The notes under the pieces were generated by a model. It was not told where the DNA came from. It was given only the letters and a program-made list of their open reading frames with translations, and ran no database searches. A DNA stretch of 64,000 nt from contig JACZVV010000001.1 of the NCBI GenBank assembly GCA_022572465.1, positions 2,749-66,748 of the forward strand, given 5' to 3'. The stretch's first letter is position 1. Every line of letters begins with the position of its first letter. The translations under genes were made by a program, and so were the position numbers. Shown piece after piece: positions 1 to 47,989 of the stretch. This DNA is from Chloroflexota bacterium (GTDB lineage Bacteria > Chloroflexota > Dehalococcoidia > SHYB01).

Positions 1-643
1 CGGCGCCGATGAAGCTGTCCTCGCCGGGGATGTTCAGCCGCCGGTACGTGGAGCCAGGCGTCAGCACCAGGGCATTGGCGCAGTAGGAGTCGCCGGAGGC
101 GGTGGTGATCAACTTGAAGCCGTCGCGGAAGGCGACGGCGGTAACCTCTTGGGCCACCAGCGTCTCGGCGCCGAAACGGCTCGCCTGCTTGGCCAGCCGG
201 TCGGCGAGGCTGGAGCCGCCGATGCCCTCTGGGAAGCCGGGCACGTTGTCCAGGTTCTCGGTGATCGCCGCTTGGCCGCCCAATGCTCCGCGGTCGATGA
301 CCAGCGTCGAGATGTCCTCTCGCGCCAGGTAGATGGCCGCGGTGAGGCCCGCGGGCCCGCCCCCGACGACGATGGTGTCGTAGAAGTCACCCCCGGCCCT
401 GGTCGTCATCCCCAGCTTGTCCATTAGCTCCCGCGGGCTGGGGTTGATGGAGAAGCTGCCGTCCTCGAACAGCACCGTGGGAATGGTGCGCCCGCCGTTC
501 TGGAGCTCCTCCAGCTTCTTTCGCCCATCCGCGTCCTCATCGATGTCGACGTTCTCGTACGGGAGTCGCTGCTCGCCGAGGAATTTCTTGAGTCGTTTGC
601 AGTAGGGGCACCAGACGGCGCTGAAAACCTTGATTCGCGGCAT
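1..643 (-). CDS. Glutaredoxin-like (CPYC) domain fused to thioredoxin-disulfide reductase; 3' end runs off the window start
   Basis: Reverse-strand translation from ATG at 643 gives MPRIKVFSAVWCPYCKRLKKFL... then GDFYDTIVVGGGPAGLTAAIYLARED (FAD-binding GGGPAG of TrxR). AGGAGG-like RBS 7 nt upstream. Not in the ORF track because no stop occurs before position 1. Confidence 0.8.
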   Translation of the reverse strand, partial: MPRIKVFSAVWCPYCKRLKKFLGEQRLPYENVDIDEDADGRKKLEELQNGGRTIPTVLFEDGSFSINPSPRELMDKLGMTTRAGGDFYDTIVVGGGPAGLTAAIYLAREDISTLVIDRGALGGQAAITENLDNVPGFPEGIGGSSLADRLAKQASRFGAETLVAQEVTAVAFRDGFKLITTASGDSYCANALVLTPGSTYRRLNIPGEDSFIGA

Positions 644-808: not shown

Positions 809-3037
809 TCACTCGCCGGACGACTCGGTGGGCCGCGCCGCCGCCGGCTGCACGCGGACGTCGGGAAGCCAACGCAACCACGTTGGGAAGTACCAGTTGA
901 CGTTGCCCAGCAACCGCATCGTCGACGGCACCAGGACCATGCGGACGATGGTGGCGTCCAGCAAGATCGCCACGCCGAGCCCGAAGCCCATCTGCTCGAA
1001 ACTGACCAGCCGTCCACTGGCGAAGCCGCCGAAAACGGCCACCATGATGAAGGCCGCGCCTGTGATGATCTTGCCCGTCGAGCGAAGTCCGAAGGCGACG
1101 GAGTCGGCGTTGTCGCCGGTCCGGTCGAACCGCTCTCGGATCCGGCTCAGCATGAAGACGTGATAGTCCATCGACAGTCCGAACAGCACCGAGAACAGGA
1201 ACAACGGGATCCAGGCCTCAATCGTGTCCACTTGCTGGAATCCGAAGAAGCCGGTGGCAACGCCTTTCTGGAAGACCAGCACCAGCATGCCGTAAGCGGC
1301 GCCGACCGAAAGCAGATTGAGGATCATGGCCTTGATGGGCACGACGATGGACCGAAAGACCAGCGTCAACAGCAAGAACGTGAGGCCGAGAACGAAGCCG
1401 AAGACGACGGGCGTGATGTCGCTGATGAGGCGGAAAAAGTCGATGGCGAACGCCGTCTCGCCGGTGACCAGCACCTGGCCCGGCACACCGTCGAAAGCGT
1501 CGGGGACGTGCTGCCGGCGCAGGCGTTTGACCGCGTCGATGGCGGCATCACTGTTGGAATCGGCGTTGATGGGGACTGGGAGGAGGGCCAAGTCGCGGGC
1601 CGGATTCACCTCGAGCGGCAGCGGTGGAGCAAACGCGTCGTCTTGGGCCAGCGAGCGGGTCAGGCGGTCGATTCCAGCGCGAACTTCCGGTGAGTCGATA
1701 TCGCCGTCGATGACCACATCCGCCGGCGTGATGCGTCCCGCCGAGAAATCCCGGTCGAGGATCTGAAACCCCGTCTTCGATTGAAGTCCTTCGGGAAGCG
1801 TGTCGATGCCGGCGAACCCCGGGTTGATGTCGAAGTACGGCACGGCCGCGGCGATGAGCAGTCCTACCGACAGGGTCATACTGAGCAACGGCCTGCGCAT
1901 CACGGTGCGGGCGACCCAGTACCAGAATCCGCCGGCATCACTCTCGGCCGTGGCTGTCTGCTGCCTGCCGAAGAACGGAACCCGGAGCTTGTTGACCCGG
2001 TCGCCCACGATGCTCAGCACCGCCGGCAGAAGGGTCAGTGACGCCGCCACGGCCATGATGACGACCATGATGGAGCCCAAGCCCAGGCTCTGGAAGATGG
2101 TGGTGGGCACGATCACCATGCCGATCAGCGCCAGGACGACCGTCACCCCGCTGAACAGCACGGTCCGGCTGCCCGTCGCCCCGGCCCGGGCGATGGCCTC
2201 GACCTTTTCCAGACCACCCCGGCGCTCCTCGCGGTAACGCTCGACGATGAACAGCGAGTAGTCGATGCCCACGGCCAACCCGATCATCACGATCATGGTG
2301 GTGATGAAGAACGAGAGCTCGATAAACTGACCGACGACAGCGGCGAGGCCGAGGGCCATGACGATGGCGACAGCGGCCAGCAACAGCGGGAGCAGAGCGG
2401 CGGCGATTGTGCCAAAAACGGCTATCAGGATGATGAGGGCGATGACGATGCCAATGGTCTCTCCCTGCACCAGGTCTTCGCCGAGGATCTCGAACGTCTC
2501 CCGGCTGACGCTGGCGATGCCGGTGCTAAAGACCTCGAACCCGTCTGTCTCCATGGCGGCGGCGACCGTGTCGTGCACCCGATCCACGTTGTCGACGGCG
2601 TCGTCGAGATCGCCGGCCATGAGGAACGGAATGATGGTGGTGCGCCGGTCCGGCGAGACCAATGACGCGTCGCCGGTCAGGTAGAAATTGGCCGCGGAGC
2701 CCGGCTCGACGATCTCGGGGCCCAGCGAGGTGATTTCCTCGAACAGCCCGGTGACGAAGGCTCGAAACGCCGGATCGTCCACGCTCCGCTCCGTGGAGCG
2801 TACGATGACGATCTCCCGGGCCTGCCGCTCGTCGCGCAGGCGGTCGTCCAGCAGCAGGTCGCCGCGCTTGGACTCCGGTCTGTTGGTAAAGTCGATCTGC
2901 GATGTCAGCGCGTCGCCCAGGAGCGTCGCGATGAGGAGCAGAGCGGCGACGAACGCGATCGCCCACAGGGCCACGGTCGTCCAGGGCCTGCGCGCGCTCT
3001 GCCGGGCAAGGGACTCAGTGCTGAGACGAAAAGGCAT
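809..3037 (-). CDS. MMPL-family (RND superfamily) membrane transporter, MmpL-like exporter
   Basis: 742-aa ORF with two hydrophobic bundles separated by soluble loops, typical of MMPL/RND proteins (e.g. GLAVGIDYSLFIVERYREE, GLSMDYHVFMLSRIRE). Confidence 0.9.
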   Translation of the reverse strand: MPFRLSTESLARQSARRPWTTVALWAIAFVAALLLIATLLGDALTSQIDFTNRPESKRGDLLLDDRLRDERQAREIVIVRSTERSVDDPAFRAFVTGLFEEITSLGPEIVEPGSAANFYLTGDASLVSPDRRTTIIPFLMAGDLDDAVDNVDRVHDTVAAAMETDGFEVFSTGIASVSRETFEILGEDLVQGETIGIVIALIILIAVFGTIAAALLPLLLAAVAIVMALGLAAVVGQFIELSFFITTMIVMIGLAVGIDYSLFIVERYREERRGGLEKVEAIARAGATGSRTVLFSGVTVVLALIGMVIVPTTIFQSLGLGSIMVVIMAVAASLTLLPAVLSIVGDRVNKLRVPFFGRQQTATAESDAGGFWYWVARTVMRRPLLSMTLSVGLLIAAAVPYFDINPGFAGIDTLPEGLQSKTGFQILDRDFSAGRITPADVVIDGDIDSPEVRAGIDRLTRSLAQDDAFAPPLPLEVNPARDLALLPVPINADSNSDAAIDAVKRLRRQHVPDAFDGVPGQVLVTGETAFAIDFFRLISDITPVVFGFVLGLTFLLLTLVFRSIVVPIKAMILNLLSVGAAYGMLVLVFQKGVATGFFGFQQVDTIEAWIPLFLFSVLFGLSMDYHVFMLSRIRERFDRTGDNADSVAFGLRSTGKIITGAAFIMVAVFGGFASGRLVSFEQMGFGLGVAILLDATIVRMVLVPSTMRLLGNVNWYFPTWLRWLPDVRVQPAAARPTESSGE

Positions 3038-3055
3038 GTCGCTCCTCTCGGGAAT

Positions 3056-3617
3056 CTACCGCTTCTGCCATACCGACTCGTACCGGTTCTCGATGAGCAT
3101 CCGGGATAGCGAGGCGTGGAGCTTGGAAAACCGTCCGTTGTATAGATTCGATTCGATGTCACTGAGCCGCCGTCCGTCCCACACGCGAAAGATCGACCTC
3201 CCGATAGTGGTCAGCAGCGTTGGCAAGACAAGATCGACGTAGACGAAATAGCCGCCCGGCCTCTGGACTCGATGGGTCTCCTTCACGGCGTCGAGCCAGT
3301 TGGGCGATGTGCTGCTGATGGCAGTGCTCGCAGCTGGCGGCGATGATTGCTTACTTGCCAGAGCATTACCGGTGCATCGCGCCGGCGCTCAGGTCCGCTT
3401 CCCGGCAGATGTCTTGCATCGTGGTCTGGCGGAACCCCTGGCCAGCGAAGCACGCGAAGGCGGCGTCGAGGATCTGCCGGCGGCGCGCTTCCAGGTGAGC
3501 CTGGGTAATCTTTGGCACGGAGTACGTCCTTGCACAGCGAATGCTCGTTCGATTTGTAAACGAACGTTCCTTCTTTTTATTACTGGCGTGTGTGCGTGTC
3601 AATCCCCCGCTGGCCAA
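3056..3617 (-). pseudogene. TetR-family transcriptional regulator disrupted by a frameshift/stop near 3366
   Basis: N-terminal HTH (ITQAHLEARRRQILDAAFACFAGQGFRQTTMQDICREADLSAGAMHR) ends in TAA at 3366. A TetR-like C-terminal domain continues in another frame (ORF 3056..3286). Likely start is GTG near 3518. Sits immediately upstream of the MmpL gene. Confidence 0.5.
3546..3566. promoter_or_regulatory. Imperfect palindrome CGTTCGATTTGTAAACGAACG in the TetR upstream region; candidate operator
   Basis: Inverted arms CGTTCG/CGAACG around an AT-rich centre, located between the methyltransferase stop and the TetR start. Confidence 0.25.
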
Positions 3618-3777
3618 TTTCGAACGAATCCACCTGCGTCTGCGTCACTCGGCGGCGCGGGTGCTTGGCGCGGCCCGATGTGGCTCGACGACAACGAAGT
3701 CGAGAGGCACGCTTCAACGCGGCGCGGCGCGATGGGACGGCGGGGAGTCTCGCGGGCGCGTGAGGCAGGGAGCGACG

Positions 3778-4575
3778 CTACGCCGGCTTGCGGGCGACCA
3801 CCAGGCCGTAGCTCAGCGCACCCTGCGTGACGAGGTCGAGGGTCTTGCGCAGCAGGTCCTTGGCCCGGTCCACCAGCGACGGCTCGATGGGAAGCTTGCC
3901 GAGTTTGGCCCCTATTTCGGCGATCAGGAGCTTGTCTCGGAGGCCCTTCAGGAACTGGGCGGCGACGGTCTGCAGGTCTTCGGTGTGCTCGACGACGAGG
4001 CCGGTCCCGGAAACCAGGTCCCGGTACTCTTCGAGGCTCTTTGCGTCGCCGACGCACCCGGCCACGGCCAGGATGCCGTGCAGCTCTGGCGGCAGGGGGC
4101 CTTCGACGGTAACGTCGGTCAGTCCCAGGCGTCCGCCGGGCCGGAGCGTTTCTGCAACCAAGCGAAGCGCCCCCTCCTTGTCAGGCAGAATGGAGAGCAC
4201 GCACTCCATGATCGCGGCGTCGAAGCTGCCCGGCTCGAGGGAGGCGTGGTACAGGTCGCCCTGGATGAACGTCGTTCGCTGCTCGACGCCGCTCTCCCGG
4301 GCCTGGGCGCGGGCGGCCTCGACCAGGTCCGTCTCCAGGGTGACGCCGACGACGTGGCAGCCGAAGCTCTTCGCCAGGTGCACCGAGCTGGCGCCCCGTC
4401 CGCAGCCGAGGTCCAGCACGCGAGCGCCACCCTCGATCCCGGCCAACTCCACCAGGCGGGACGTGAGGGCGAGGCCGCCGGGGTGATAGGAATCGCCCAA
4501 GAGCCAGCGAGCCGCTGGGTGGCTGTAGGCGGCCGAGCAACAGCCGGCCAGGTCGAGGTCATTGGGCAGGGTCAT
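3778..4575 (-). CDS. Class I SAM-dependent methyltransferase
   Basis: 265 aa; motif I VLDLGCGRGASSVHLA and acidic motif II. N-terminal Cys pair (AGCCSAAY). Overlaps the upstream SRPBCC gene by 17 nt. Confidence 0.8.
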   Translation of the reverse strand: MTLPNDLDLAGCCSAAYSHPAARWLLGDSYHPGGLALTSRLVELAGIEGGARVLDLGCGRGASSVHLAKSFGCHVVGVTLETDLVEAARAQARESGVEQRTTFIQGDLYHASLEPGSFDAAIMECVLSILPDKEGALRLVAETLRPGGRLGLTDVTVEGPLPPELHGILAVAGCVGDAKSLEEYRDLVSGTGLVVEHTEDLQTVAAQFLKGLRDKLLIAEIGAKLGKLPIEPSLVDRAKDLLRKTLDLVTQGALSYGLVVARKPA

Positions 4576-5098
4576 CGGCTCCCTCCGGCGTCGGGCAGGG
4601 CTGCTGCGGGTAGATTTTGCTGCGCCTGGCCCGGCTCTCGATGGTCTCTTTCATCTCGATCAGATGGTGGCGCATGAAGCGCTTCAACATGGGCGCGACG
4701 TACAGCTTGCCGACCAGCCACCCGGCGAGCCATCCTCGCACGCCGAACGTGCTCTCGTAACGCATGCGGGTGCAGGCCCCCCACTCCTCGAGGACGAAGC
4801 GATCGCGCAGCAGCGGCAACGGCCCCTGCTCCCCGGTAAAATCGATGCGGTCCGGCTCGTGAGTCGTGACCCACTCGACGGTGCGGTGGACGTTTGTCCT
4901 GCCGAACAGCCCTTTGATCGGCGTACGAAACTCGATGAGCTTGCGGGCGCCGTCCTCGCGCAGGACTCGCGAGCCGGACTCGCCGCCGGGACCCGCGGCG
5001 CCCCAGGCCGTCAGCACCTGGAACGCCAGCCGCCGGTCGGCCTGGATCTCGATCTCGGCCGCGGGCAGGCGGATGGGGACGGGCCATAACGACCACAT
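4559..5098 (-). CDS. SRPBCC (Bet v1 / polyketide-cyclase-like) ligand-binding protein
   Basis: Conserved part of ORF 4559..5431 starts at MWSLWPVPIRLP (ATG about 5098), 8 nt after the radical-SAM stop. The N-terminal 110 aa of the track ORF are a low-complexity shadow. Confidence 0.7.
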   Translation of the reverse strand: MWSLWPVPIRLPAAEIEIQADRRLAFQVLTAWGAAGPGGESGSRVLREDGARKLIEFRTPIKGLFGRTNVHRTVEWVTTHEPDRIDFTGEQGPLPLLRDRFVLEEWGACTRMRYESTFGVRGWLAGWLVGKLYVAPMLKRFMRHHLIEMKETIESRARRSKIYPQQPCPTPEGADDPAQ

Positions 5099-5106
5099 GC
5101 CGTTGC

Positions 5107-6642
5107 TTACCCGGCGGTCTTCGCCTGGTTGAACCGCGCGAGGGCCGACCGCACGCGCTCTTTGCTCAACGCCTCGCGGACCTCCTCTCGATACCCGACG
5201 TTGTTGTAGGCGCAGAATGGGATCATGCGGCCGTCGGGCGTGAGAAACTCGACGCAGCATTTCATGAGTTTCTTCACGTCGAAGGTGTAGCGGTCCATGA
5301 AGTCCTTGATGCTCACGACGAAGATGTGCTTGGTCAGATTGTGGCCGTCCAGGGGCAGATCGATGTTGCACGTGGCGCAGCTGAACTTGTCGGCGACGCC
5401 GTCGGTCCCCGGCACCGCGGTGGCCGACCACAGCCCCTCCAGCGCCTCCTGGATGTTTTCGCCCGAATCGGGCCAGGGGATGGGCCAGGTGCGATTGGTG
5501 ATGTAGTCCAGGTACTCGTCGACGTTGATCAGGCGCGGCAGCGGGACCACCTCTTCACCGTCCACGTAAGCATACGTGATCGACTGGCAGGCCGGGTGGC
5601 AGCACGGCACCGGCACGAAGTCGCTCTTGACGAACGTGCCGCCGGTCTGGGCTTCGATGCGTTCGACGATCTCGGAGATCGTCACCCGGTCCATGGGGTC
5701 GAAGGGCAGGTGACGGCCGGTGTGGGTCACCGGCTGGAAGTTCACCCCTCGGACCGCCGGATGCTTCAGGCCGAACTCGATGATGCCGCCCACCTCGTGC
5801 TCGTTGACCCCTCGTTCGACGGCGGCGACGAGGATGGTCGGCAGGTCCAGCTCCGCCAGCCGGTCCAGGGCCGCCAGCTTCTCGTCGAGCAGCGCCTCGC
5901 CGCGCAGTTTCACATAGGTCTCGTCCTCCAGTCCGTCGAACTGGAGGTAGATCATCGGCCGCAGCTCGCCCAGGCGGCGCGCCCACTCGGCGTCCCGGGC
6001 AATGCGCCGCCCGTTGGTGTTGATCATCACATGGCGGATGCCCTTCTCCTGGGCCATGCGGACCATCTCGAACAGTTGAGGGTGCAGCGTGGGCTCGCCT
6101 CCACTAAACTGCAACACTTCAGGATCGCCCTCGGCCCGGACGAAGGTATCCAGCATGCGTTCGACCTGGTCCAACGTCAGGTTGTAACCGGGGCCGGCGT
6201 CGGCGAAGCAGGTGGGACACGCCAGGTTGCAGCCGGTGTTGACCTCGATCAGGGCCAGGCACGTGTGTTGCTTGTGCTCGGGGCAAAGGCCGCAGTCGTA
6301 CGGGCAGCCGTCCTTGACCTCGGTCTGGTACTCGAGAGGGATCGTGCCCGGTTTGTTGTACTTCAGCGAGTTGACATAACCTTCAGCGTCGGTGGACAGC
6401 AGCGCCTCGAACCGGCCGTGGTCGGGGCAGCGTTTTCGCAGGTACACCTTGTTGTTTTTCAGGTGAATCTCGCCGTCGATCAAGGCGTTGCATTCGGGAC
6501 ACAAGCTGCGAGTCAGCTCGTAGAAGATGGAATCGGCGGTTCGTTTCTCCGGGATGGCGCTACCGTGGGTCACAGCACGGCTCCTTTTTTGCCGCCGGTT
6601 GCCCGGCGCAGCGTTGAACTCGACGCACCCATGCGGCCCCAT
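5107..6642 (-). CDS. Radical SAM enzyme with N-terminal 4-Cys zinc-ribbon and C-terminal Cys-rich auxiliary domain
   Basis: 511 aa; CNLACPTCF (CxxxCxxC) and GGEPTL glycine motif. N-terminal CPEC...CPDHG. C-terminal CCHPAC, CATC, KCC...FCAYN clusters. Confidence 0.85.
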   Translation of the reverse strand: MGPHGCVEFNAAPGNRRQKRSRAVTHGSAIPEKRTADSIFYELTRSLCPECNALIDGEIHLKNNKVYLRKRCPDHGRFEALLSTDAEGYVNSLKYNKPGTIPLEYQTEVKDGCPYDCGLCPEHKQHTCLALIEVNTGCNLACPTCFADAGPGYNLTLDQVERMLDTFVRAEGDPEVLQFSGGEPTLHPQLFEMVRMAQEKGIRHVMINTNGRRIARDAEWARRLGELRPMIYLQFDGLEDETYVKLRGEALLDEKLAALDRLAELDLPTILVAAVERGVNEHEVGGIIEFGLKHPAVRGVNFQPVTHTGRHLPFDPMDRVTISEIVERIEAQTGGTFVKSDFVPVPCCHPACQSITYAYVDGEEVVPLPRLINVDEYLDYITNRTWPIPWPDSGENIQEALEGLWSATAVPGTDGVADKFSCATCNIDLPLDGHNLTKHIFVVSIKDFMDRYTFDVKKLMKCCVEFLTPDGRMIPFCAYNNVGYREEVREALSKERVRSALARFNQAKTAG

Positions 6643-6760: not shown

Positions 6761-8602
6761 TCACACGGCTGCTCGTTGCACCGCCTTCCGGAGCTGGACC
6801 GCGGTATTGATCACCGCCACATGGGTGAAGGCCTGGGGGAAGTTTCCCAGCATCTCGCCGGTTTCCGGGAGCACCTCTTCGCTGAACAGGCCCAGGTCGT
6901 TGGCGTGGCCCAGCAGGTTCTCGAACATGGCCCGGGCCCGGTCCGTCTCGCCGAGCAAGATCAGGTTGTCGGCCAGCCAGAAGGAGCACAGCGTGAACGC
7001 CCCCTCCTGGCCTCCAATTCCATCGTCGTAGTCCCGGTAACGGTAGACCAGCCCCGAAGGGCTGGTCAGCTCTTGGGCGGTCTTCTCGATGGTGGAGCGC
7101 ATGCGGGGATCGGTGGCCTTGATGAACCTGACCAGGGGAAGCATCAGGTTCGAGGCGTCCAGGGTCTTGCTGCCGTAGTGCTGGACGAAAGCCCCCACTT
7201 CGGGGTCGTACCCCTTTTCCAGCACTTCCTGCCGGATCTCCTCCATCACCGCCCGCCATTGCATGACGTCTCCGTCGCGCCCTGTGTCGCGCACCGTCAG
7301 CACGGCCCGGTGCAGCGCCACCCAGCACATCACCTTGGAGAACACGAAGTGCTGCCGCCCCCCTCGCGTCTCCCAGATCCCGTCGTCGGGCTCCTTCCAG
7401 TGGTCCATGACGAACTGGGCCACGTCGCGGCAGAACTCCCAGTACTCATCGTCAAACCCGCCGACGTATTTGCGGTAGAGGTGTGCCGAGTCCAGCACCT
7501 CCCCGTAGATGTCCAGCTGAAACTGCGAGTGGGCCCCGTTGCCGATCCGCACCGGGCGTGAGCGGCGATAGCCCTCCAGGTGAGGGAGCTCGATCTCCGT
7601 AAGGCGCCGCTCTCCCCCGAGCCCGTACATCACCTGGAGGTCGGCTGCTCGTCCCGCGGTGGCCCGCTCGAGCCAGTCTTTGAACGCTCGGGCTTCGTCC
7701 ACGAAGCCGACGATGTTCAACGCGTAGAGGGCGAAGGCGGCATCACGGATCCAAGTGTACCGATAGTCCCAGTTGCGGGATCCACCGATGGCCTCGGGCA
7801 ACGACGTGGTAGCCGCGGCTACCAGGCCGCCGGTGGGCGCGTAGGTCAGCGCCTTCAGCGTGAGGACGCTGCGCAGGACGTCGTCCCGATACGGGCCCTC
7901 GTACGTCAGCTTCGCCGACCACTCCTCCCAGAAACGTTTGGTGTCCTCGAAACGGAGCTTGACCTCCGCGCTGCCCAGCACCTCGATTTCGTGATTGGTG
8001 GGGTGCGAGTAACGAGCCGAAAAGTAGGCCGTGCTGCCCGAGTCCATCCGCCCTCTCGCTACGAAGCCGTTGTCCTCCACCTCCATCGGCGCGGAGCTAT
8101 AAAACGCCAGGGCGTCGGCCCCTCCATGGGCGTAACCGGAGTGGGGGTTGAGGGTCATCGCGTGGGGAACGATGGCGCCGTAGTCGAAACGGGGCTGACA
8201 GACAGCCTCGAATTCCACCGACCCCGATGTGCACTTCAGAATGCGCCCGATCTGTTGCTCCGGGAAGATCTCGTTCGGATCGCCGGGGCGGTCGTGGCCG
8301 TGGGCCGGCATGAAGTCTGTCAGCACCGCCGTTCCCTTCTTCGTGTGGAACGTCGTCTCGAGAATATTCGTCGCCGGCAGGTAGCGGCGGGTGGTCCGCA
8401 CCGTATCCAGAGGCCGCACCGTGAAATGGCCGCCAATGTTTTTGTCCAACAGGCGCCCGAAAACCGACCGGCTATCGAAACGCGGGAAGCAGGCCCAGTC
8501 CACCGAGCCGTCGGAGGAGACCAGGGCGCAGGAGTGAGCGTCGCCGATCAGGCCATAGTCGCTGATGGGGCGGTAGCCGTCGTTGGAGTCGGATGGGCTC
8601 AT
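6761..8602 (-). CDS. Glycoside hydrolase family 15 (glucoamylase/trehalase-like)
   Basis: 613 aa with GH15-typical (alpha/alpha)6 catalytic-domain signatures (WIRDAAF, NWDYRYTWIRD, general acid/base Glu region). Stop overlaps the pgl start by 4 nt. Confidence 0.85.
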   Translation of the reverse strand: MSPSDSNDGYRPISDYGLIGDAHSCALVSSDGSVDWACFPRFDSRSVFGRLLDKNIGGHFTVRPLDTVRTTRRYLPATNILETTFHTKKGTAVLTDFMPAHGHDRPGDPNEIFPEQQIGRILKCTSGSVEFEAVCQPRFDYGAIVPHAMTLNPHSGYAHGGADALAFYSSAPMEVEDNGFVARGRMDSGSTAYFSARYSHPTNHEIEVLGSAEVKLRFEDTKRFWEEWSAKLTYEGPYRDDVLRSVLTLKALTYAPTGGLVAAATTSLPEAIGGSRNWDYRYTWIRDAAFALYALNIVGFVDEARAFKDWLERATAGRAADLQVMYGLGGERRLTEIELPHLEGYRRSRPVRIGNGAHSQFQLDIYGEVLDSAHLYRKYVGGFDDEYWEFCRDVAQFVMDHWKEPDDGIWETRGGRQHFVFSKVMCWVALHRAVLTVRDTGRDGDVMQWRAVMEEIRQEVLEKGYDPEVGAFVQHYGSKTLDASNLMLPLVRFIKATDPRMRSTIEKTAQELTSPSGLVYRYRDYDDGIGGQEGAFTLCSFWLADNLILLGETDRARAMFENLLGHANDLGLFSEEVLPETGEMLGNFPQAFTHVAVINTAVQLRKAVQRAAV

Positions 8603-9336
8603 GCGGTGACCCTGGAGAGCTGTTGAGCCGCATCGGTGGTCAGGAACCAGTGGAGCGCGCCCGAGGCCGGCTTCACCAACCCAGCGGGCGCCGCCGTTTC
8701 ACCCGCGCGCGGCTCGATGCTCTTCCTCACCGCCTCGGCCTTGCTGCCGTCGCTGGCGAGGAACGCGACGGCCCGGGCGGCGTTGATCAGCGGCAGCGTG
8801 AACGTCAGGCGGTACGTTCCAAGGTGGCGGGTCCGCGTGGCGACCACATGCCGGCGCCGCTCTTCCAGCGCCGCGCTGCCGGGGAAGAGCGAGGCCGTGT
8901 GGCCGTCGTCGCCGATGCCCAGGAGCACCAGGTCCAGCTCCGGCGTTCCATCCCCCAACACCCCCGCCAGCTCTGCCTCATACCGCTCCGCCGCTTCCTC
9001 CGGCGGCTCCTCGCCGCGCATCCTGTGGACCTGTGACGGGGGCACGGGAACGCTGTCGAGCAACGCCTCTTTCGCCAGGCGATAGTTGCTGCTCGGGTCC
9101 TCGGGCGGCACGCAGCGTTCGTCTCCCCAGAAGACGTGCCATCGGTCCCATCGCGCCTGCGAGGCGTAGGGCGGGCCGGCCAGGATTTCATAGACTCGCC
9201 GGGGCGTGGACCCGCCGGAAAGCGCGATCGTGAATCGGCCTCGGTCGGCGATGGCTTGGCCGGCCCATCGGGCGATGAACCCGGCCAGAGCCCGGGCATT
9301 CTTTTCAGGCGTCGCGACGACGTGCAGTTTACACAT
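8599..9336 (-). CDS. pgl: 6-phosphogluconolactonase
   Basis: [25 protein letters not shown] and [16 protein letters not shown] motifs. Start taken at the internal Met (MCKLHVV); overlaps zwf by 8 nt. Confidence 0.8.
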
Positions 9337-10807
9337 GATGCATCGCGTGGGTCCCGCACACCTGTAGCCAGGCACGGCCATCCTGGGCCAGCAGCGCGTC
9401 CGCCCGGTCCGGCCCCCACGAGCCCGGTTCGTACCGCTGCAGCGGCGACTTCTCCCCTTCGGCGTCGTCCAGCAGCGGCTCCACCACCCGCCACGACTCC
9501 TCGATCTGATCGGCGCGGATGAACAGGGCCGCGTCCCCCTCCAGCGCGTCCTGCAGCAGCCGCTCGTACGCCTCGGGCAACACGTCCCCCTCGAACTCCG
9601 TGCCGTAGTGAAACGCCATGTCCGCCGACCGCGTGCTCATTCCCTGGTCTGGCACCTTGACCTCGAACCGCAAGTGGGCCCCCTCGTCCGGCTGGATGCA
9701 CAGGGCCAGGGCATTCGGCGCGGGCGCTTCCGATGGGTCCGTCGCGAACATCAGGTGGGGCGGGCGCTGGAACTGGACGACCACCTCCGAGACCTTGCGG
9801 CCCAAGGCCTTGCCGGTCCGCAGGTAGAAGGGCACGCCGTGCCAGCGCCAGTTGTCGATGTACAGCCGCAGCGCGATGTAGGTCGCCGTCTGCGACTCCG
9901 GCGCCACTCCTTTCTCGTCCAGGTACCCGTGGTACTGCCCTCGCACCGCATGCTGCCGCGCTCCTCCCGCTCCCCACGGGCGGATCGCCTTCAGTACATC
10001 GACTTTCTTGCTGCGCAGCGACTCCGCGTCCGCCGCGCTCGGCGGCTCCATCGCCACCATCGTCAGCAGCTGCAGCAGGTGATTTTGCACCATGTCCCGC
10101 ACCACGCCCGAATGGTCGTAGTAGGCGCCGCGATCGCCGACCGGCACCTCCTCCGCGACGGTGATCTGGACGTTGTCCACATAGTTGCGGTTCCAGAGCG
10201 GTTCGAAGATGGCGTTGGCGAAGCGGAAGACCAGCAGATTCTGGACCGTCTCCTTGCCAAGGTAGTGGTCGATGCGAAAGACCTGATGCTCTTTGAAGAA
10301 GTTGCCGACCGTCTCATTCAGGTCGCGGGCGGAAGGGAGGTCTCGGCCAAAGGGTTTCTCGATGACGATTCGCCGCCAGCCGGTGTCTTCGTTGGCCAGG
10401 CCCATCGCCCCCAGGTTCAGCACCGCTGGCTTGTAGAGGTGTGGTGCAATAGAGAGGTGAAACAGGCGGTTGGCCGGTTTGCGGCCTCCCTCCAGCTCCT
10501 CGATCCGCTCCCGGAGCCCCAGCACCTGCTCCGCGTTGTCCACCGCGCCGATGACGTAGTGCAGCCGCTTGGCGAACTCATCCCACTGGCTGCGGTCGAT
10601 GGTCATGCCGCCCTCTTCGCGCACCCCGTTCCACATGTAGTCGCGAAAGGCCGCGTCCGAGTATTTGGAGCGTGAGAAGCCGATGAAACGGACGTCTTCC
10701 GGCAGCCGTCCCTTGAAGTTCAGGTTGAACAGCGCCGGAAACAGCTTGCGTTTAGAGAGGTCTCCGGTCGCGCCGGTGATGACGATCGTGGTGGTGCCTG
10801 CCGGCAT
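9329..10807 (-). CDS. zwf: Glucose-6-phosphate 1-dehydrogenase
   Basis: [17 protein letters not shown]-binding site, RIDHYLGKE active site, EKPFGRD. ATG at 10807..10805 overlaps the TGA of the upstream gene (ATGA). Confidence 0.9.
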
Positions 10808-11715
10808 CACTTCGCCTTTCGAACGGCGTGGCCGCCGAATTGCTGGCGCATGGCCGCCAGCAACCTGTCGGCGAACGACGACTCCTGGCGGGACCTGAAC
10901 CGCTGCTGGAGGGCCAGGGTTATGACCGGCGCCGGAACGCCCAGGTCCACCGATTCCTTGACCGTCCACCGGCCTTCGCCCGAGTCCTCCACGTAGGCCT
11001 GGAGCGCTTCCAAGCGCGGGTCCTCGGCCAGCGCGTCGGCGGTGCGGTCGAGCAGCCACGAGCGGATGACGCTTCCGAAGCGCCAGACCTGGGCGATGCC
11101 CGCCAGGTCCAGATCGAACTCTTCCTTCGCCTGCAGGAGCTGAAACCCTTCGGCATAGGCCTGCATGAGGCCATACTCGACGCCGTTGTGCACCATCTTG
11201 ACGAAGTGCCCCGCGCCCGACGGGCCCACGTGGGCGTATCCTTTGTCGACGCCGGGCGCGAGGGTCTGGAAGATCGGCTCCAGCCGGTCGAACGTGGCGC
11301 GGTCGCCGCCGACCATGAGGCTGTACCCGCCTTTGAGCCCCCAGATGCCGCCGCTGGTGCCGGCGTCCAGGTAGGCGATGCCCTTCGCTTGCAGCGCCGC
11401 CGATCGCCGCATCGTGTCTTTGTAGTTGGAGTTCCCGCCGTCGATGATCGCGTCTCCCGGGGAGAGCGCCTCGCCAACGGCGGCGACGGTCTGCTCGGTG
11501 GCCTCACCGGAGGGCACCATGCTCCAGACGGCTCGCGGCGCGTCGAGCTTCGCGGCGAGATCGGCGATCGACGAGGCCCCGGCCGCTCCCTTGGACACCA
11601 GGGCTTGGACCGCCGTGGCGTTGAAATCGTAGGCGACCACCTGGTGGCCGCCTTGCAGCAGACGTTCCGTCATGTTGCCGCCCATGCGGCCCAGACCGAT
11701 CATGCCAAGCTGCAT
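10807..11715 (-). CDS. gnd: 6-phosphogluconate dehydrogenase, short (about 300 aa) decarboxylating type
   Basis: [15 protein letters not shown] Rossmann N-terminus, [16 protein letters not shown]. Confidence 0.85.
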
Positions 11716-11784: not shown

Positions 11785-14514
11785 CTATTCGATGGCCATG
11801 GATGCCAGGCCGGTCTCGACGTCGCCCTTGAGCGTCACGCGCGCCACGCGCCGGCCCAACGCTTCGAGCGCGTTCAGATCGCCCAGGGCCTGGGCCGCTG
11901 CCAGGACGCCAAAGCTGTACGTTTCGCCGGGCACCGGCAGGTCGTGGGCGTCGTCGGCGACGATCTGGACGTACAGACCCGTGGGCGGCCCGCCCTTGTG
12001 GAGCTGGCCCGTGGAGTGCAAGAAACGCGGGCCAAACCCCAACGTGGTGGCGATGCCGTGGCGCTGCATGACGGCCCGCCGCAGGTCCGTGAGTCGCGCG
12101 ACGACCGCCGGCGTCTCTTGAACATAGGCCATGATGGCCAGATAATCGCCCGGCCTGGCGCCGGATAGCAGCTCCCGCAGCGAACCCGTCGCGCTGACAT
12201 CCGGTAAGCGGCCTTCCTTCTCGTAGGATGCCAGCACCTGGGCCGTCAGGTCCTTGGCTTGCTGGACGTTCGGCTGATCGAACGGCTGGATGCCGAGGAT
12301 GGCGCCGGCGACGGCGGTGGCGAACTCCCACCGGAAAAACTCACCACCGAGGTCGTACCGGTCCTTCAAAGCCAAGCGTGCCACCGGATGGCCCGACGAC
12401 TCAAGGCGTTCAATGGCCTGGTCCAGCTGCGCGTTGTCGTCGCCGTCCAACCGAAGGTAGACGAAGAAGCGGTCGTTCCCATAGGCGGCGGGCTCCAGCA
12501 ACGGCTCGCCCGCCACCGGCACGACGCCCTTGCCTTCCTTGCCGGTGCTCTCGGCGACGAGCTGCTCCACCCACAGGCCGAAGCCGGCGATCGCGGGGGA
12601 GGTCACCAGGGTCAGCTTGTCGCGCCCGTTCTGGGCCAGCGTGCCCATGGCGGCGCCTAGCCACGCAGCGGGATTCGCCTCGCCTTGCTCGTGGGCGGCG
12701 TCCCGAGCGCCGTCGGCCCGTTGCAGCAGCATGGCAACGTCCAGGCCCATGAGGGCGGCCGGCGTCAGGCCAAAATACGAGAGGACCGAGTACCGTCCAC
12801 CAACGTCGGAGGGGTTGAGGAACGATCGACGAAAGCCCCGGTCTGCCGCCAGCCGCTCCAGCGGCGTTCCGGCGTCGGTGATGGCGACGAAATGGCGGCC
12901 GGCGCTGTCCGCTCCGACGGTCTCTTCCACCAGTCGGCGGAAATGCTTGTAGAGGCTCATGACCTCGATCGTGGAGCCCGACTTGGACGACACCAGGAAC
13001 AGGGTGCGGGCCGGGTCGATGGCATCGGTGACGTGGCGGACCGCCGCCGGGATGGTGGAGTCCAGGACGATGAGCTCGGGGTAGCCTTCGGCGCTGCCGA
13101 AGGTCTGACGGAGGACCTCCGGGCCCAGGCTGCTGCCGCCCATGCCCAGGAGCACGACGTGACGGATGCCCTCGTCTCGGACCTCTTGCGCGAACGACTC
13201 CAGCGACGAGACCTGCTTGGACATGCGCTCGGTGACCTGGAGCCAGCCGAGCCGGTCGGCGATCTCGGCCGGGTCTTGTTTCCAGACGGTGTGGTCCCGA
13301 TCCCAGATGCGGGGTACGGTCCGGTCGCCGGCCATCCGCCGCAGCGTGGCCTCGACGTCCGTCTTCAGGTCGCCCAGACCGTCCAGCGGCGAGGCCGCGG
13401 AATGGGCGCGCAGCCGCTCCCGCTTCTCGGCGATGTTGCGAATGAGGGAGTCGAAGGAATCGGCGAAGGACTTGACCCCTTCGTCCAGAAGCTGCTGCGT
13501 CACCCGCTCCATGCTGACGCCCGCCTGGTCGATCGCCGCCAGCGCAGCCTCGGCTTCCGCGACGTGGCCGGCCAGAGTCGGCCTGACGACGCCCGACTCG
13601 GCGTAGGCGGTGAGGGTAGCGGGTGGCAGCGTGTTGACCGTGTTCGGGCCGATGAGCGACTCAACGTACATCAGCTCGTCGTAGGCCGGGTTCTTGGTGC
13701 TGGTGCTGGCCCATAAAGGCCGTTGGGGCTTGGCGCCCTTCTCTCGCAACTCCGCGAACCTCGGGCCCTCGAACAGCTCCTGAAACATGTGGTAAGCCAT
13801 GCGAGCGTTGGCGATGGCGGCCTTGCCCTGGACAAGCGCCGCGTCGCTGTTGCCCGCGTCCACACGCTCCTGGAGCAGCTTGTCCGTCAGTGTATCCACC
13901 CGGCTCAAGAAAAAGGAGGCCACCGCGCCGACCTTCCCCACGTCGCCCCCTTGCTCGGCCAGCTCCTCCAGCCCCTCCACATACGCCTCCGCCACCTGCC
14001 GGTACGCCTCCAGCGAAAAAATCAGGGTGGTGTTGATATTGATGCCCTTGCTGATGAGCCGGCGCACCGCCGGGATGCCCTGGGGCGTTCCAGGCACCTT
14101 GATCATCACGTTGGGCCGCTCCAGCGCCGCGAACAGTCGCAGCGCCTCTTCCACCGTCTCCTCGGTCTCATACGCCAGGTTGGGGCTGACCTCCAGAGAG
14201 GCGTAGCCGTCGGCGCCGCCGGTCTCGTCGTAGATCGGACGCAGCAGGTCCGCCGCCCGTTGGATGTCGCCGATGACCAGCGCCTCGTACGTCTCGACAA
14301 CGTCTTTACCGGCGCGGGTAAGCTCGATCAGCGCCTCGTCGTAATCGGCGCTTCCGGCGATGGCCTTCTCGAAGATCGTGGGGTTCGACGTCAAGCCGGT
14401 GACGCCGTCGTCGATGAGCCGCGCTAGCTCTCCCGAGACCAGCAGCCCTCGACGCATGTTGTCGTACCAGATCGACTGGCCCAGCTTGCGGGTCTCTTGA
14501 AGCGCATGAGTCAT
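11785..14514 (-). CDS. Bifunctional transaldolase / glucose-6-phosphate isomerase fusion
   Basis: 909 aa. The N-terminal 360 aa are transaldolase (TSNPTIF, VMIKVPGT). The C-terminus is PGI (LGMGGSSLGPEV, SKSGSTIE). Confidence 0.85.
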   Translation of the reverse strand: MTHALQETRKLGQSIWYDNMRRGLLVSGELARLIDDGVTGLTSNPTIFEKAIAGSADYDEALIELTRAGKDVVETYEALVIGDIQRAADLLRPIYDETGGADGYASLEVSPNLAYETEETVEEALRLFAALERPNVMIKVPGTPQGIPAVRRLISKGININTTLIFSLEAYRQVAEAYVEGLEELAEQGGDVGKVGAVASFFLSRVDTLTDKLLQERVDAGNSDAALVQGKAAIANARMAYHMFQELFEGPRFAELREKGAKPQRPLWASTSTKNPAYDELMYVESLIGPNTVNTLPPATLTAYAESGVVRPTLAGHVAEAEAALAAIDQAGVSMERVTQQLLDEGVKSFADSFDSLIRNIAEKRERLRAHSAASPLDGLGDLKTDVEATLRRMAGDRTVPRIWDRDHTVWKQDPAEIADRLGWLQVTERMSKQVSSLESFAQEVRDEGIRHVVLLGMGGSSLGPEVLRQTFGSAEGYPELIVLDSTIPAAVRHVTDAIDPARTLFLVSSKSGSTIEVMSLYKHFRRLVEETVGADSAGRHFVAITDAGTPLERLAADRGFRRSFLNPSDVGGRYSVLSYFGLTPAALMGLDVAMLLQRADGARDAAHEQGEANPAAWLGAAMGTLAQNGRDKLTLVTSPAIAGFGLWVEQLVAESTGKEGKGVVPVAGEPLLEPAAYGNDRFFVYLRLDGDDNAQLDQAIERLESSGHPVARLALKDRYDLGGEFFRWEFATAVAGAILGIQPFDQPNVQQAKDLTAQVLASYEKEGRLPDVSATGSLRELLSGARPGDYLAIMAYVQETPAVVARLTDLRRAVMQRHGIATTLGFGPRFLHSTGQLHKGGPPTGLYVQIVADDAHDLPVPGETYSFGVLAAAQALGDLNALEALGRRVARVTLKGDVETGLASMAIE

Positions 14515-16546: not shown

Positions 16547-16693
16547 TTTTCATCCCCCGGCTGAACATGGCGACGCATCGGGGTCTCGCACGGCGTGCGC
16601 TCGAAGCCATACTACATCAATTAAATGGCCGGGTCATCGGTGAAGATACCGAATATCCATCCGATCCCGCCCCGGCGCGAGCTCTCCCAACTG

Positions 16694-16749
16694 CGGCGGC
16701 TGAGCCGCAGCAGTATTTCCGGACCAAAAATGCTGCGGCTCAGCCGCCG
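16694..16749. terminator. Long perfect hairpin (19-bp stem, 18-nt loop) between the LLM gene 3' end and the tkt promoter region
   Basis: GCGGCTGAGCCGCAGCA ... TGCTGCGGCTCAGCCGC inverted repeat. No clear U-tract, so it could equally be a REP-like element. Confidence 0.35.
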
Positions 16750-16799
16750 GAGGAGCGGAGCGACGAAGAAGGACACCTTTGAAAACTTTGTTGACCGAG

Positions 16800-38124: not shown

Positions 38125-38200
38125 GTGGTGGGCGGTACTGGAATCGAACCAGTGACCCCTTGCGTGTGAAGCAAGTGCTCTAACCCCTGAGCTAACCGCC
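38125..38200 (-). tRNA. tRNA-Val (anticodon CAC)
   Basis: GGGCGGTTAGCTCAGGGGTTAGAGCACTTGCTTCACACGCAAGGGGTCACTGGTTCGATTCCAGTACCGCCCACCA; cloverleaf with 7-nt anticodon loop UUCACAC. The 3' 45 nt are duplicated at 21947-21991. Confidence 0.85.
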
Positions 38201-38227
38201 CTAGCCCGGCGTGGGGTCTCGACGAAT

Positions 38228-38302
38228 GGTGCCAACGGCAGGGCTCGAACCTGCGACCTAGCGCTTATGAAGCGCCCGCTCTTCCCCTGAGCTACGTTGG
38301 CG
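38228..38302 (-). tRNA. tRNA-Met (anticodon CAU; elongator or Ile2-type, not distinguishable)
   Basis: GCCAACGTAGCTCAGGGGAAGAGCGGGCGCTTCATAAGCGCTAGGTCGCAGGTTCGAGCCCTGCCGTTGGCACCA; G1-C72 pair. Confidence 0.8.
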
Positions 38303-47894: not shown

Positions 47895-47989
47895 TGGCGG
47901 AGGGAATGGGATTTGAACCCATGAAGAGGTTATTCACCCCTTAACCGCTTAGCAGGCGGCCGCACTAGACCAGGCTATGCGATCCCTCC
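47895..47989 (-). tRNA. tRNA-Ser (anticodon GCU), class II with long variable arm
   Basis: GGAGGGATCGCATAGCCTGGTCTAGTGCGGCCGCCTGCTAAGCGGTTAAGGGGTGAATAACCTCTTCATGGGTTCAAATCCCATTCCCTCCGCCA. Confidence 0.8.

Follow-up and report, generated by a model that had tools for sequence, protein, structure and literature searches.

At the beginning of the window, by which we mean the whole 64,000-nucleotide stretch of Chloroflexota DNA analysed here, four open reading frames listed in the initial annotation are all present on the minus strand: a radical SAM (rSAM) gene at 5107-6642, a gene for a 179-amino-acid protein at 4559-5098, a methyltransferase (MT) gene at 3778-4575, and a gene for an MMPL-family RND transporter (MmpL) at 809-3037 (Pfam MMPL, 3e-81). 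The rSAM gene and the 179-amino-acid gene are separated by 8 nt and the latter overlaps the MT gene by 17 nt, just as annotated, and identical junctions are found in L001, a contig 97% identical to the window. Where does the rSAM gene start? Its frame is open up to ATG 6642, while a Shine-Dalgarno sequence, AAGGAG, lies 7 nt upstream of GTG 6573, and homologues begin at GTG. Judging from these sequence features, the true start is probably GTG 6573, which would place the gene at 5107-6573 with a product of 488 amino acids. With this start, the gap to the upstream GH15 gene becomes 187 nt instead of the 118 bp annotated, and a consensus scan of the coding strand detected neither a promoter nor a terminator between the rSAM operon and the pentose-phosphate/GH15 genes.

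Toward the MmpL gene, the minus strand carries a promoter-like site at 3546-3602, which consists of TTGACA at 3602-3597 and a 21-nt palindrome, CGTTCGTTTACAAATCGAACG, at 3566-3546. This site was read directly from the sequence and was not called by the consensus scan; it is likely to be a separate TetR operator and transcription start for MmpL. Downstream of it lies a remnant of a TetR-family gene (3366-3518, minus strand), 50 codons from GTG 3518 to an in-frame TAA, which matches TetR_N at E=2.8e-10 over profile positions 1-35 of 47 and is called with the same 50 amino acids in L001. In the decayed stretch between the remnant and MmpL (3056-3365, minus strand), three-frame translation showed that the terminal open frame differs from that of the helix-turn-helix (HTH), and a family search of this stretch found no family, a tail match to Methyltransf_11 being non-significant (E=0.18). 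Thus, the HTH of the frameshifted TetR gene described before is real, but only the 50-codon remnant is left of it, and the remainder is out of frame without a family match. MmpL adjoins the module in only 3 of the 71 clade loci, namely the window, L001 and L005, two of which are near-identical. The view that an MmpL exporter and a TetR regulator are parts of the system is not supported, since MmpL is so rarely adjacent, the promoter-like site and its palindrome lie between MmpL and the module, and TetR is a remnant; both are probably bystanders. At the very edge, the window cuts a gene on the minus strand (1-643), whose translation is the start portion of a fusion between a glutaredoxin-like domain (CPYC) and a thioredoxin-reductase-like flavoprotein; its full 407-amino-acid counterpart in L001 matches Glutaredoxin and Pyr_redox_2. 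Thiol-redox genes are seen near the module in several loci, although thioredoxin-family genes are common and this may be coincidental.

What kind of enzyme is the rSAM protein? It carries the Pfam domains Zn_ribbon_HMPTM and Radical_SAM, and is a full-length homologue of GDGT-MAS/Tes (PDB 7TOL, E=1.3e-86). Its predicted model fits 7TOM/7TOL with TM 0.75-0.77 over about 500 columns, that is, over the whole length, compared with TM of about 0.32 to all other rSAM structures. The early impression that it recalls a multi-cluster tetraether synthase is therefore well founded. On the NCBIfam models, it scores 368.6 bits for Tes (cutoff, 450) and 363.4 bits for TrsS (cutoff, 490), and all the clade members tested score about equally on the two, at 325-381 bits, under both cutoffs. 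Membership of Tes itself, which the initial annotation could not confirm, is not supported because of the sub-cutoff score, a replaced labile Met ligand and additional Cys residues, nor is that of TrsS because of its score. The rSAM protein belongs to a third, distinct and widespread bacterial clade of the Tes/TrsS superfamily. It keeps the four-domain architecture of GDGT-MAS, in which a rubredoxin-like Fe site and a C-terminal cluster domain accompany the [4Fe-4S]N and radical-SAM cluster motifs. Across the clade, conservation extends to the motifs CX2CX20CX2H, CX3CX2C plus His, and CX3CX2C.

All the motifs picked out initially, CPEC...CPDH, CNLACPTCF, GGEPTL, CCHPAC, CATC and KCC...FCAYN, are found in the protein, though two details needed correction: the N-terminal ribbon is not of the four-Cys type but CX2CX20CX2H (three Cys and one His), the same as in GDGT-MAS, and the C-terminal domain has eight Cys residues, not nine. 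These eight are all conserved across clade members of 43% to 100% identity. They correspond to the set of Tes and TrsS (C352, C462 and C477) together with that of the clades paired with an Lgt-like protein (C347, C422/425 and C463), so that five invariant residues, C347, C348, C422, C425 and C463, lie beyond the Tes triad. Solely from such complementary Cys patterns between clades, we propose a putative second metal site in the C-terminal domain. The position of the labile Met is occupied by K, Q, R or E in nearly all clade members, by M in one, and by Lys in the window.

The genes around this clade are informative. Among the 57 clade loci with enough flank to score it, 50 have an MT gene directly downstream of the rSAM gene; in 54 of 61 loci, the MT starts between -27 and +94 nt from the rSAM stop, and in P0068 the two are fused into one protein. 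Thus, the rSAM protein is encoded almost always immediately 5' of the MT, usually with an overlap and once as a fusion, and the pair is found in Chloroflexota, Actinomycetota, and soil and marine metagenomes. A gene for an SRPBCC protein, to which family the 179-amino-acid protein belongs as described below, is located near the pair in 12 loci at varying positions, and it sits between the two in the subclade of the window. In L002, the rSAM gene stands alone while SRPBCC and MT genes overlap elsewhere, on a contig of equal length that is taken as the same genome. Is it possible that we are looking at fortuitous adjacency, or at genes in decay that form no functional module? Some local decay does exist, as the neighbouring TetR remnant indicates. 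However, the open reading frames are intact, their catalytic motifs are invariant, and an arrangement seen in 50 of 57 loci across such different sources, with one fusion, is not due to chance; the survey effectively refutes this explanation. The proposal that the gene order should be conserved in related genomes thus held for the rSAM-MT pair, and the locus survey together with the junctions substantiates the three genes as a conserved, translationally coupled unit. Such near-constant pairing marks a widespread, uncharacterised pathway.

Which molecules does this pathway act on? PlsY is encoded downstream of the module in L007 and L018. In sister clades, the rSAM protein is paired with, or fused to, an Lgt-like membrane protein, and L033 and L061 have an Lgt-like gene as well as the MT. 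The pairing in sister clades supports a lipid substrate, and with PlsY in two loci, the hydrophobic or lipid-like substrate envisaged in the initial annotation is plausible. The 179-amino-acid protein itself had no match in Pfam or NCBIfam even at E<=10. Its AF2 model is confident (pLDDT 89), the best Foldseek matches are TcmN ARO/CYC, TTHA0849 and CoxG with probability 1.0, and some of its 106 homologues carry PF10604. Therefore, the middle protein is indeed an SRPBCC (Bet v1/START-like) protein, and probably a carrier of a hydrophobic ligand. Its C109 is near-invariant, and C168 is located in its C-terminal tail; conserved Cys residues outside the clusters are a feature of the rSAM protein, the MT and the SRPBCC protein alike.

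One explanation, in the direction of the initial annotation, is that bacteria make tetraether or membrane-spanning lipids here: the rSAM protein would couple two alkyl tails tail-to-tail, the MT would methylate the lipid separately, the SRPBCC protein would deliver it and MmpL would export it. The whole-length similarity to GDGT-MAS is in line with this, no residue of the Tes-type Cys triad is missing, which would keep genuine C-C coupling feasible, and Lgt-like, PlsY, SRPBCC and MmpL neighbours suggest lipids. Moreover, bacterial Tes homologues, many of them in Chloroflexota MAGs, have been put forward as candidates for brGDGT synthesis (PMC8941075; PMC11868695). On the other hand, the literature found shows no bacterial Tes homologue to be active, the rSAM protein misses the Tes cutoff and is as close to TrsS as to Tes, its labile Met ligand is replaced, five extra Cys are invariant, and the MmpL neighbour is not conserved. 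C-C coupling also leaves unexplained a near-obligate, sometimes fused, ArsM-like MT with four Cys, and class I MTs are, to our knowledge, unable to methylate saturated carbons. We consider this explanation unlikely, and the rSAM-MT pathway is probably not tetraether synthesis.

The MT deserves closer attention. It scores 137 bits on the NCBIfam model NF045667 of the DVU_1556 family (cutoff, 155) and 92 bits on the ArsM subfamily model (cutoff, 263); by these scores, it is related, below threshold, to the DVU_1556 MT, the partner of true TrsS. Its Cys set consists of C12, C13, C125 and C174, and in 61 linked MTs, C13 and E124-C125 are conserved in all, C174 in 60, and C12 in 59. C125 and C174, the two at the substrate site, fall in the alignment on the Cys residues with which ArsM binds As(III) ('SNC' and 'GEC'; 8XT7/5EVJ), whereas the Cys of ArsM 'YGCG' is absent and HPGG is found there instead. 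The class I fold assigned before is correct, but a generic enzyme it is not, being an ArsM-like four-Cys protein and a near-obligate partner of the rSAM protein. It is to be noted that the best solved relatives, MitM, a RebM-like enzyme and phosphoethanolamine MTs, are ordinary N- or O-methyltransferases, and the four Cys could accordingly serve structure or regulation.

Two other explanations are suggested by these features. One is that the module makes organo-metalloid lipids: the MT would bind As(III), or Se, Sb or Te, at its dithiol site and methylate it, the rSAM protein would join the metalloid to a lipid-tail radical, and the SRPBCC protein would carry the arsenolipid-type product. The MT has invariant Cys at both As-binding positions of ArsM, some homologues are annotated in their source as 'arsenite methyltransferase', selenoproteins are frequent in the sister family TrsS, and all three proteins have the conserved non-cluster Cys. 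Furthermore, pairs of an rSAM and an ArsM-type enzyme are reported to build C-As bonds in arsinothricin biosynthesis, and C-As bonds of arsenosugars likewise come from such a pair. However, no ars or selenium genes (arsR, acr3, arsC or selD-type) are present in the loci with annotated neighbours, the MT is far below the ArsM cutoff with HPGG at the 'YGCG' position, and the distribution in Chloroflexota and Actinomycetota resembles that of a housekeeping pair, not of a resistance island, which makes this explanation very unlikely. The other is maturation as supposed for TrsS/DVU_1551-1557, where the targets of the rSAM protein and the MT would be a metallocofactor or a partner protein, with the SRPBCC protein as a scaffold. 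Cofactor assembly is what the fusions of true TrsS look like, their partners being a MocA-like NTP transferase, a PaaK-like ligase and the DVU_1556 MT, and maturases are typically coupled tightly, or fused, to their partners. Still, it appears quite improbable, as the other DVU_155x genes are absent beside the clade, the first 13 loci have no conserved third neighbour or target gene, and both the SRPBCC protein and the Lgt-like proteins paired with sister clades indicate lipids.

We prefer, with a probability of roughly 0.4, that a hydrophobic substrate is radically functionalised at an Fe-S or thiol site in a putative chemistry coupled to methylation. The SRPBCC protein would extract a hydrophobic, lipid-like substrate and hand it over to the rSAM protein, whose 5'-deoxyadenosyl radical would, like that of Tes, abstract H from a carbon that is not activated. 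In GDGT-MAS, an intermediate between the substrate carbon and cluster sulfur is formed (PMC9433317; PMC13459092). Instead of resolving such an intermediate to a C-C bond, the rSAM protein of the window might form or keep a carbon-heteroatom bond, the heteroatom being sulfur or another thiophilic atom at its extra Cys site, and the ArsM-like MT might supply or methylate the heteroatom through a dithiol site. Overall, a hydrophobic molecule would gain a methyl-heteroatom function, in a reaction formally resembling that of a methylthiotransferase split in two.

How does such a pair compare with known systems? In MiaB and RimO, the auxiliary-cluster sulfur is methylated before radical transfer. 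With these methylthiotransferases, the window pair may share radical H abstraction and a SAM-derived methyl on auxiliary Fe-S sulfur, but this is a working analogy only, as they are unrelated families with both activities in one polypeptide. ArsS-ArsM and ArsL-ArsM, which yield C-As compounds, have the same logic of an rSAM enzyme with a thiol-rich MT. ArsL and ArsS, the latter of TIGR04167, are of another rSAM family, however, and ArsM shares with the window MT the class I fold and Cys at two As(III)-binding positions, with an N-terminal Cys pair also present, whereas the window MT is outside the ArsM family by HMM and the loci with annotated neighbours show no ars gene context. The Tes homologues paired with Lgt-like proteins, for which no description was found in the literature searched, are 40-46% identical to the window rSAM and share C347, CC/CxxC and C463, but they have lost C352, C462 and C477, and a prolipoprotein-diacylglyceryl-transferase-like membrane protein replaces the MT in 14 of 15 loci. 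Archaeal GDGT-MAS/Tes (MJ0619) is about 39% identical (33% in the structural alignment), with the four domains, cluster motifs and three C-terminal Cys in common; Met439, its labile ligand, is Lys in the window, and the window clade is bacterial with a near-obligate MT, a partner not reported for Tes. A parallel in organisation is TrsS with its DVU_1556-family MT (NF045646/NF045667), reportedly described by Haft and Tolstoy in 2025: a Tes-related rSAM protein is tied to a homologous MT with the same two ArsM-like Cys, and fusions occur in both (P0425 for TrsS). Identities are 34-37% between the rSAM proteins and 30% between the MTs. The Met is retained in TrsS, where the additional CxxC and CC are missing, and TrsS fusions involve the DVU_1551 NTP transferase and DVU_1553 ligase, neither of which accompanies the window clade; instead of these partners, the clade has the SRPBCC protein, and it lives in Chloroflexota and Actinomycetota.

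What kind of enzyme is the radical SAM protein of this module (5107-6573, minus strand)? By Pfam it is composed of Zn_ribbon_HMPTM and Radical_SAM domains, and its sole strong relative among solved structures is the archaeal tetraether lipid synthase GDGT-MAS, or Tes (MJ0619; PDB 7TOL), which is aligned in two stretches over residues 42-493 with E=1.3e-86. Its AlphaFold model (pLDDT 79.5, pTM 0.83) superposes on 7TOM/7TOL with TM 0.75-0.77 over about 500 columns, while other radical SAM structures match the core only (TM about 0.32). It is to be noted that, in addition to the four-domain fold of Tes, the ligand motifs of GDGT-MAS, namely CX2CX20CX2H, CX3CX2C plus a His, and the CX3CX2C of the SAM cluster (PMC9433317), are all found in the window enzyme: C48, C51, C72 and H75 form the rubredoxin-like site, C113, C117, C120 and H123 the three-Cys-plus-His motif of [4Fe-4S]N, and C138, C142 and C145 the radical-SAM motif. 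These motifs are near-invariant throughout our sample of the superfamily. Membership in the SPASM/twitch, HpnR/B12 and MoaA/PqqE groups was rejected; models of SPASM families match the core alone (about residues 131-310), and neither Pfam nor NCBIfam reported a SPASM/twitch or cobalamin-binding (B12) domain. The initial annotation had suspected a multi-cluster enzyme of the tetraether-synthase type with nine C-terminal cysteines. As to homology and architecture this holds, as to family membership it does not, for the score on the NCBIfam equivalog model of Tes (NF045702) is 368.6 bits and its cutoff is 450; the C-terminal cysteines are eight.

Identity with TrsS, a related radical SAM (seleno)protein family known here only from NCBIfam and a review table, was rejected as well, at 363.4 bits on NF045646, whose cutoff is 490 bits and on which true TrsS proteins reach 619-698 bits. 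Members of the clade to which the window enzyme belongs score 311-367 bits on the Tes model, and 15 further relatives of this kind 255-381 bits on the Tes and TrsS models, all below both cutoffs. Over well-aligned columns, the window enzyme is 39% identical to MJ0619 and 34-37% identical to true TrsS. Does such an enzyme join lipid tails? In Tes, H is abstracted from the terminal carbon of a lipid, the carbon radical so formed is parked at one sulfur of the [4Fe-4S]C cluster, and reaction with another radical then yields the C-C bond (PMC9433317; PMC13459092); the cluster is held by three Cys and a labile Met, Met439 (PMC13459092). The three Cys are conserved in the window enzyme, and the position of the Met is occupied by K446, as it is by K, Q, R or E in nearly all of the clade, while the Met is present in 12 of 13 Tes-group and in all 25 TrsS-group representatives. 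Genuine tail-to-tail coupling, that is, a C(sp3)-C(sp3) bond made as in Tes, would be in keeping with the shared fold, motifs and three Cys; with the labile Met replaced and the scores below the Tes cutoff, we regard it as unlikely.

The C-terminal cysteines carry a further hint. Eight of them, C347, C348, C352, C422, C425, C462, C463 and C477, are strictly conserved in the window's clade across 43% to 100% identity. Tes and TrsS retain C352, C462 and C477, whereas the sister bacterial clades have lost these three and retain C347 and C463 along with two neighboring Cys (CC) at the 422/425 position. Since the window's clade has both sets, its members may well possess another metal or thiol site in the C-terminal domain besides the Tes-type cluster.

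The methyltransferase gene (3778-4575, minus strand) encodes a class I enzyme by Pfam, and the solved structures closest to it overall are those of MitM, a RebM-like methyltransferase and phosphoethanolamine methyltransferases. Among NCBIfam models it scores highest on the DVU_1556 family (NF045667, 137.2 bits, below the cutoff of 155) and next highest on ArsM (NF008823, 92.1 bits, far from the cutoff of 263), so that neither assignment was accepted. Among 61 methyltransferases linked to the radical SAM gene, C13 and C125 are found in all, C174 in 60 and C12 in 59; an invariant Glu precedes C125, and an HPGG motif is also conserved. In a PDB query with the C-terminal half, C125 and C174 are aligned with the Cys of 'SNC' and 'GEC' in solved ArsM (8XT7, 5EVJ), the As(III)-binding residues of that enzyme (C174 and C224 in CmArsM), and could be a dithiol pair able to bind As(III). 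MitM and the RebM-like enzyme have no Cys at these two positions in the same output, and a query with the N-terminus alone gave no meaningful alignment with ArsM. ArsM has its third catalytic Cys in a 'YGCG' motif, where the window protein has HPGG and no Cys. A route to organo-arsenic or organo-selenium lipids could be imagined from the aligned Cys pair; the annotated flanks, however, showed neither arsenic nor selenium genes, the third Cys is missing, and we consider such a route very improbable.

The relation to TrsS can be seen also from the methyltransferase. True TrsS proteins occur as fusions with a DVU_1556-type methyltransferase (P0425), with a DVU_1551 MocA-like NTP transferase (P0441) and with a DVU_1553 PaaK-like ligase (P0485), so that TrsS is physically tied to the DVU_1551-1557 gene set; the NTP transferase part of P0441 has an HD region, and the ligase of P0485 is a PaaK-like AMP ligase. 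A literature search on DVU_1556/1557 found nothing. P0425 has a methyltransferase domain with 30% identity to the window protein (E=6e-21), in which the equivalents of both C125 and C174 are kept. Thus, the radical SAM-methyltransferase pair of the window seems to be sister to the TrsS/DVU_1556 pair, its two genes having co-diverged: the adjacent methyltransferase is homologous to the DVU_1556 type yet falls short of its cutoff, and the other DVU_155x partners are absent. This kinship is also what would speak for maturation of a cofactor or a protein, as is suspected for TrsS, and the absence of the remaining partners is what makes it, in our estimation, a very doubtful function for the module.

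How tightly are these genes bound to each other? All the open reading frames called before on the minus strand of 809-6642 are present, and the motifs quoted from them were seen in the translations. From reading of the sequence, 8 nt separate the radical SAM stop from the start of a 179-aa reading frame (4559-5098), which overlaps that of the methyltransferase by 17 nt, and a Shine-Dalgarno sequence, GGAGGGAG, lies within the upstream 179-aa gene. The radical SAM protein probably starts at GTG 6573 rather than at the annotated ATG 6642, because AAGGAG is located 7 nt upstream of the former and homologues begin near there; a start at ATG 6642 would give 23 extra residues (window 6573-6642, minus strand), which are poorly conserved and modeled with low confidence. 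Gene set and junctions are the same in a 97%-identical metagenomic contig (L001). Scans of the coding strand gave neither promoter nor terminator, including the interval between the radical SAM gene and the GH15 gene upstream of it, and therefore boundaries of the operon are inferred. The GH15 gene (trehalase/glucoamylase-like; 6761-8602, minus strand) adjoins the radical SAM gene in the window and in L001, and is divergent from it in L008 (L008:3-1784, minus strand), an Anaerolineales MAG whose radical SAM protein is merely 58% identical to that of the window; this neighborhood may be a coincidence.

Related loci were collected through a genome scan with a single protein (12 loci), contig look-ups, and a metagenome scan with a narrower alignment (80 loci), and the window's clade was represented by the 71 loci that keep six diagnostic C-terminal Cys. 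The assembly index has no entry for the exact radical SAM protein of the window. Conservation of the gene neighborhood, proposed as a check in the initial annotation, was borne out for its core, as the methyltransferase gene directly follows the radical SAM gene in 50 of the 57 clade loci with at least 900 nt downstream. In 54 of 61 loci, the methyltransferase start is projected at -27 to +94 nt from the radical SAM stop; where an SRPBCC gene is placed between the two, as it is in six loci, this distance grows to about 500-540 nt. P0068 is even a fusion of the radical SAM enzyme with the methyltransferase, and in the homologue tables twenty radical SAM clusters and methyltransferase clusters agree in the length of their longest contig. 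In one lineage (L002) the radical SAM gene stands alone and an overlapping SRPBCC-methyltransferase pair is located elsewhere; both are taken to belong to the same genome because the same 3.39-Mb longest contig is recorded for the two proteins. The contig with the stand-alone SRPBCC-methyltransferase pair (L016) has genes for a LuxE/LuxC-type acyl-protein synthetase and acyl-CoA reductase (L016:4151-6641) about 3.4 kb upstream of the pair, with three genes between, and an ABC exporter downstream. Recorded hosts are Dehalococcoidia, other Chloroflexota, Anaerolineales, Promineifilaceae, Acidimicrobiia, Pseudonocardiaceae and NC10/Methylomirabilia MAGs. Judged by its best hits, the window most likely derives from a genome of the class Dehalococcoidia.

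The 179-aa protein matches no Pfam or NCBIfam model even at E<=10, PF10604 included, and fold prediction was applied for that reason; some of its 106 homologues do match PF10604. Its model (pLDDT 89) has the beta-alpha start, antiparallel sheet and long C-terminal helix of the SRPBCC helix-grip fold, with TcmN ARO/CYC, TTHA0849, CoxG and PR-10 as the best Foldseek matches (probability 1.0, TM up to 0.78), and the proposal of an SRPBCC protein is thus borne out by the predicted structure. A near-invariant C109 lies in the sheet, and C168 in the C-terminal tail. At six more distant loci, similar genes are found upstream or downstream of the radical SAM-methyltransferase pair on either strand; such varied positions argue for a functional link, not for inherited synteny.

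The MmpL gene (809-3037, minus strand) and the TetR gene beside it, at first supposed to be the exporter and the regulator of the module, are probably no part of it. MmpL is adjacent in only 3 of the 71 clade loci, namely the window, the 97%-identical L001 and L005, and co-location does not speak for coupled lipid export. TetR is reduced to a 50-codon HTH remnant followed by a decayed tail (3056-3518, minus strand), with two in-frame TAA and another frame that matches no family. The same 50-aa call in L001 indicates that it is probably a real pseudogene, not a sequencing error. The frame ending at 3056 holds a stretch '...RPGGYFVYVDL...' with faint likeness to a methyltransferase tail (E=0.18). 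Before MmpL come a 258-nt gap, a promoter-like TTGACA and a near-perfect 21-nt palindrome, CGTTCGTTTACAAATCGAACG (3546-3602, minus strand), just upstream of the remnant; the arrangement resembles a TetR operator/promoter that has been orphaned and may now drive MmpL constitutively. After MmpL, a fusion of a glutaredoxin-like (CPYC) domain with a thioredoxin-reductase-like flavoprotein is encoded (1-643, minus strand; also L001:6623-7846), and thioredoxin, AhpC or glutaredoxin genes are seen near the radical SAM-methyltransferase pair in L004, L006, L008 and L018. Elsewhere on the minus strand (9329-11715 and 11785-14514), the longest zwf frame (576 aa) overlaps gnd by about 250 nt, and the true zwf start is probably further downstream since the G6PD domain begins at residue 93; the gene upstream of these encodes a bifunctional fusion of transaldolase and phosphoglucose isomerase with 909 aa (NF007080, 1217 bits). 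Scans of the window for tRNA and Rfam families gave nothing related to the module; the only RNA genes found are tRNA-Val(CAC), tRNA-Met(CAT) and tRNA-Ser(GCT), at 38126-38301 and 47895-47989 (minus strand).

What, then, is the substrate? In the sister clades, which comprise a set of 40-46% identity together with L053, L054 and L088, an Lgt-like membrane protein, similar to prolipoprotein diacylglyceryl transferase with matches below the TIGR00544 cutoff, is encoded beside the radical SAM gene in 14 of the 15 loci with enough flank. The sister-clade loci are L053, L054, L073-L075, L082 and L084-L098 (e.g., L053:2797-3633 and L091:3268-4041); P0377 is an Lgt-like-radical SAM fusion, and two methyltransferase-paired loci, L033 and L061, also have an Lgt-like gene. 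PlsY, glycerol-3-phosphate acyltransferase, is encoded directly downstream of the pair at L007:10429-11103 and L018:10727-11422. Both are Dehalococcoidia-type loci, and in L018 a second PlsY gene lies nearby (16195-16881) and the pair is surrounded by several transposase genes. The Lgt-like pairing, the PlsY neighbors and the SRPBCC protein favor a membrane-lipid-like substrate. Our best reading, to which we give a probability of roughly 0.4, is that the SRPBCC protein would deliver a hydrophobic substrate, on which the radical SAM enzyme would form or keep a carbon-heteroatom bond, the heteroatom being supplied or methylated by the methyltransferase. A more specific proposal, which we hold to be quite unlikely, is that the methyltransferase-paired clade is a five-metallocentre enzyme that, together with its ArsM-like dithiol methyltransferase, would attach S, Se or As as a methylated heteroatom to an unactivated carbon of a lipid tail. 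The five putative centers would be the rubredoxin-like Fe, [4Fe-4S]N, the radical-SAM cluster, the Tes-type [4Fe-4S]C, and a second Cys4 site shared with the Lgt-paired clades.

If heteroatom installation on lipid tails were true, it would be a chemistry not yet known for lipids, and one version of the five-center proposal would supply the route, so far missing, by which hydrocarbons and fatty acids containing arsenic or sulfur are made. Homologues of Tes in bacteria are already known, have been proposed as enzymes for branched GDGTs and serve as genomic markers of their producers, with many hits in Chloroflexota (PMC8941075; PMC11868695), and we found no report in which a bacterial homologue was shown to be active (PMC13459092; PMC11868695). 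Branched GDGTs underlie widely used proxies of palaeotemperature and pH. The homologues analyzed here fall into classes defined by their partners, methyltransferase-paired, Lgt-like-paired and TrsS, which differ in their C-terminal Cys sets and none of which reaches the Tes threshold. Inference of tetraether synthesis from such marker genes is therefore unsafe, and if the five-center proposal is true, a large share of the bacterial homologues counted as metagenomic brGDGT potential would not be tetraether synthases. In our literature search, neither the four-Cys methyltransferase partner nor the SRPBCC insertion nor the Lgt-like pairing in sister clades was found to be described. The methyltransferase-paired class is a compact, testable target of two or three genes, which could uncover a novel radical reaction acting on hydrophobic substrates and could also clarify the role of the enigmatic TrsS/DVU_1556 system. 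Compared with that system, as catalogued by NCBIfam, the window's clade stays under both thresholds. Compared with Tes, the window enzyme has kept the machinery, has lost the protective Met, has apparently gained a second Cys site, and is tied to a putative dithiol methyltransferase.
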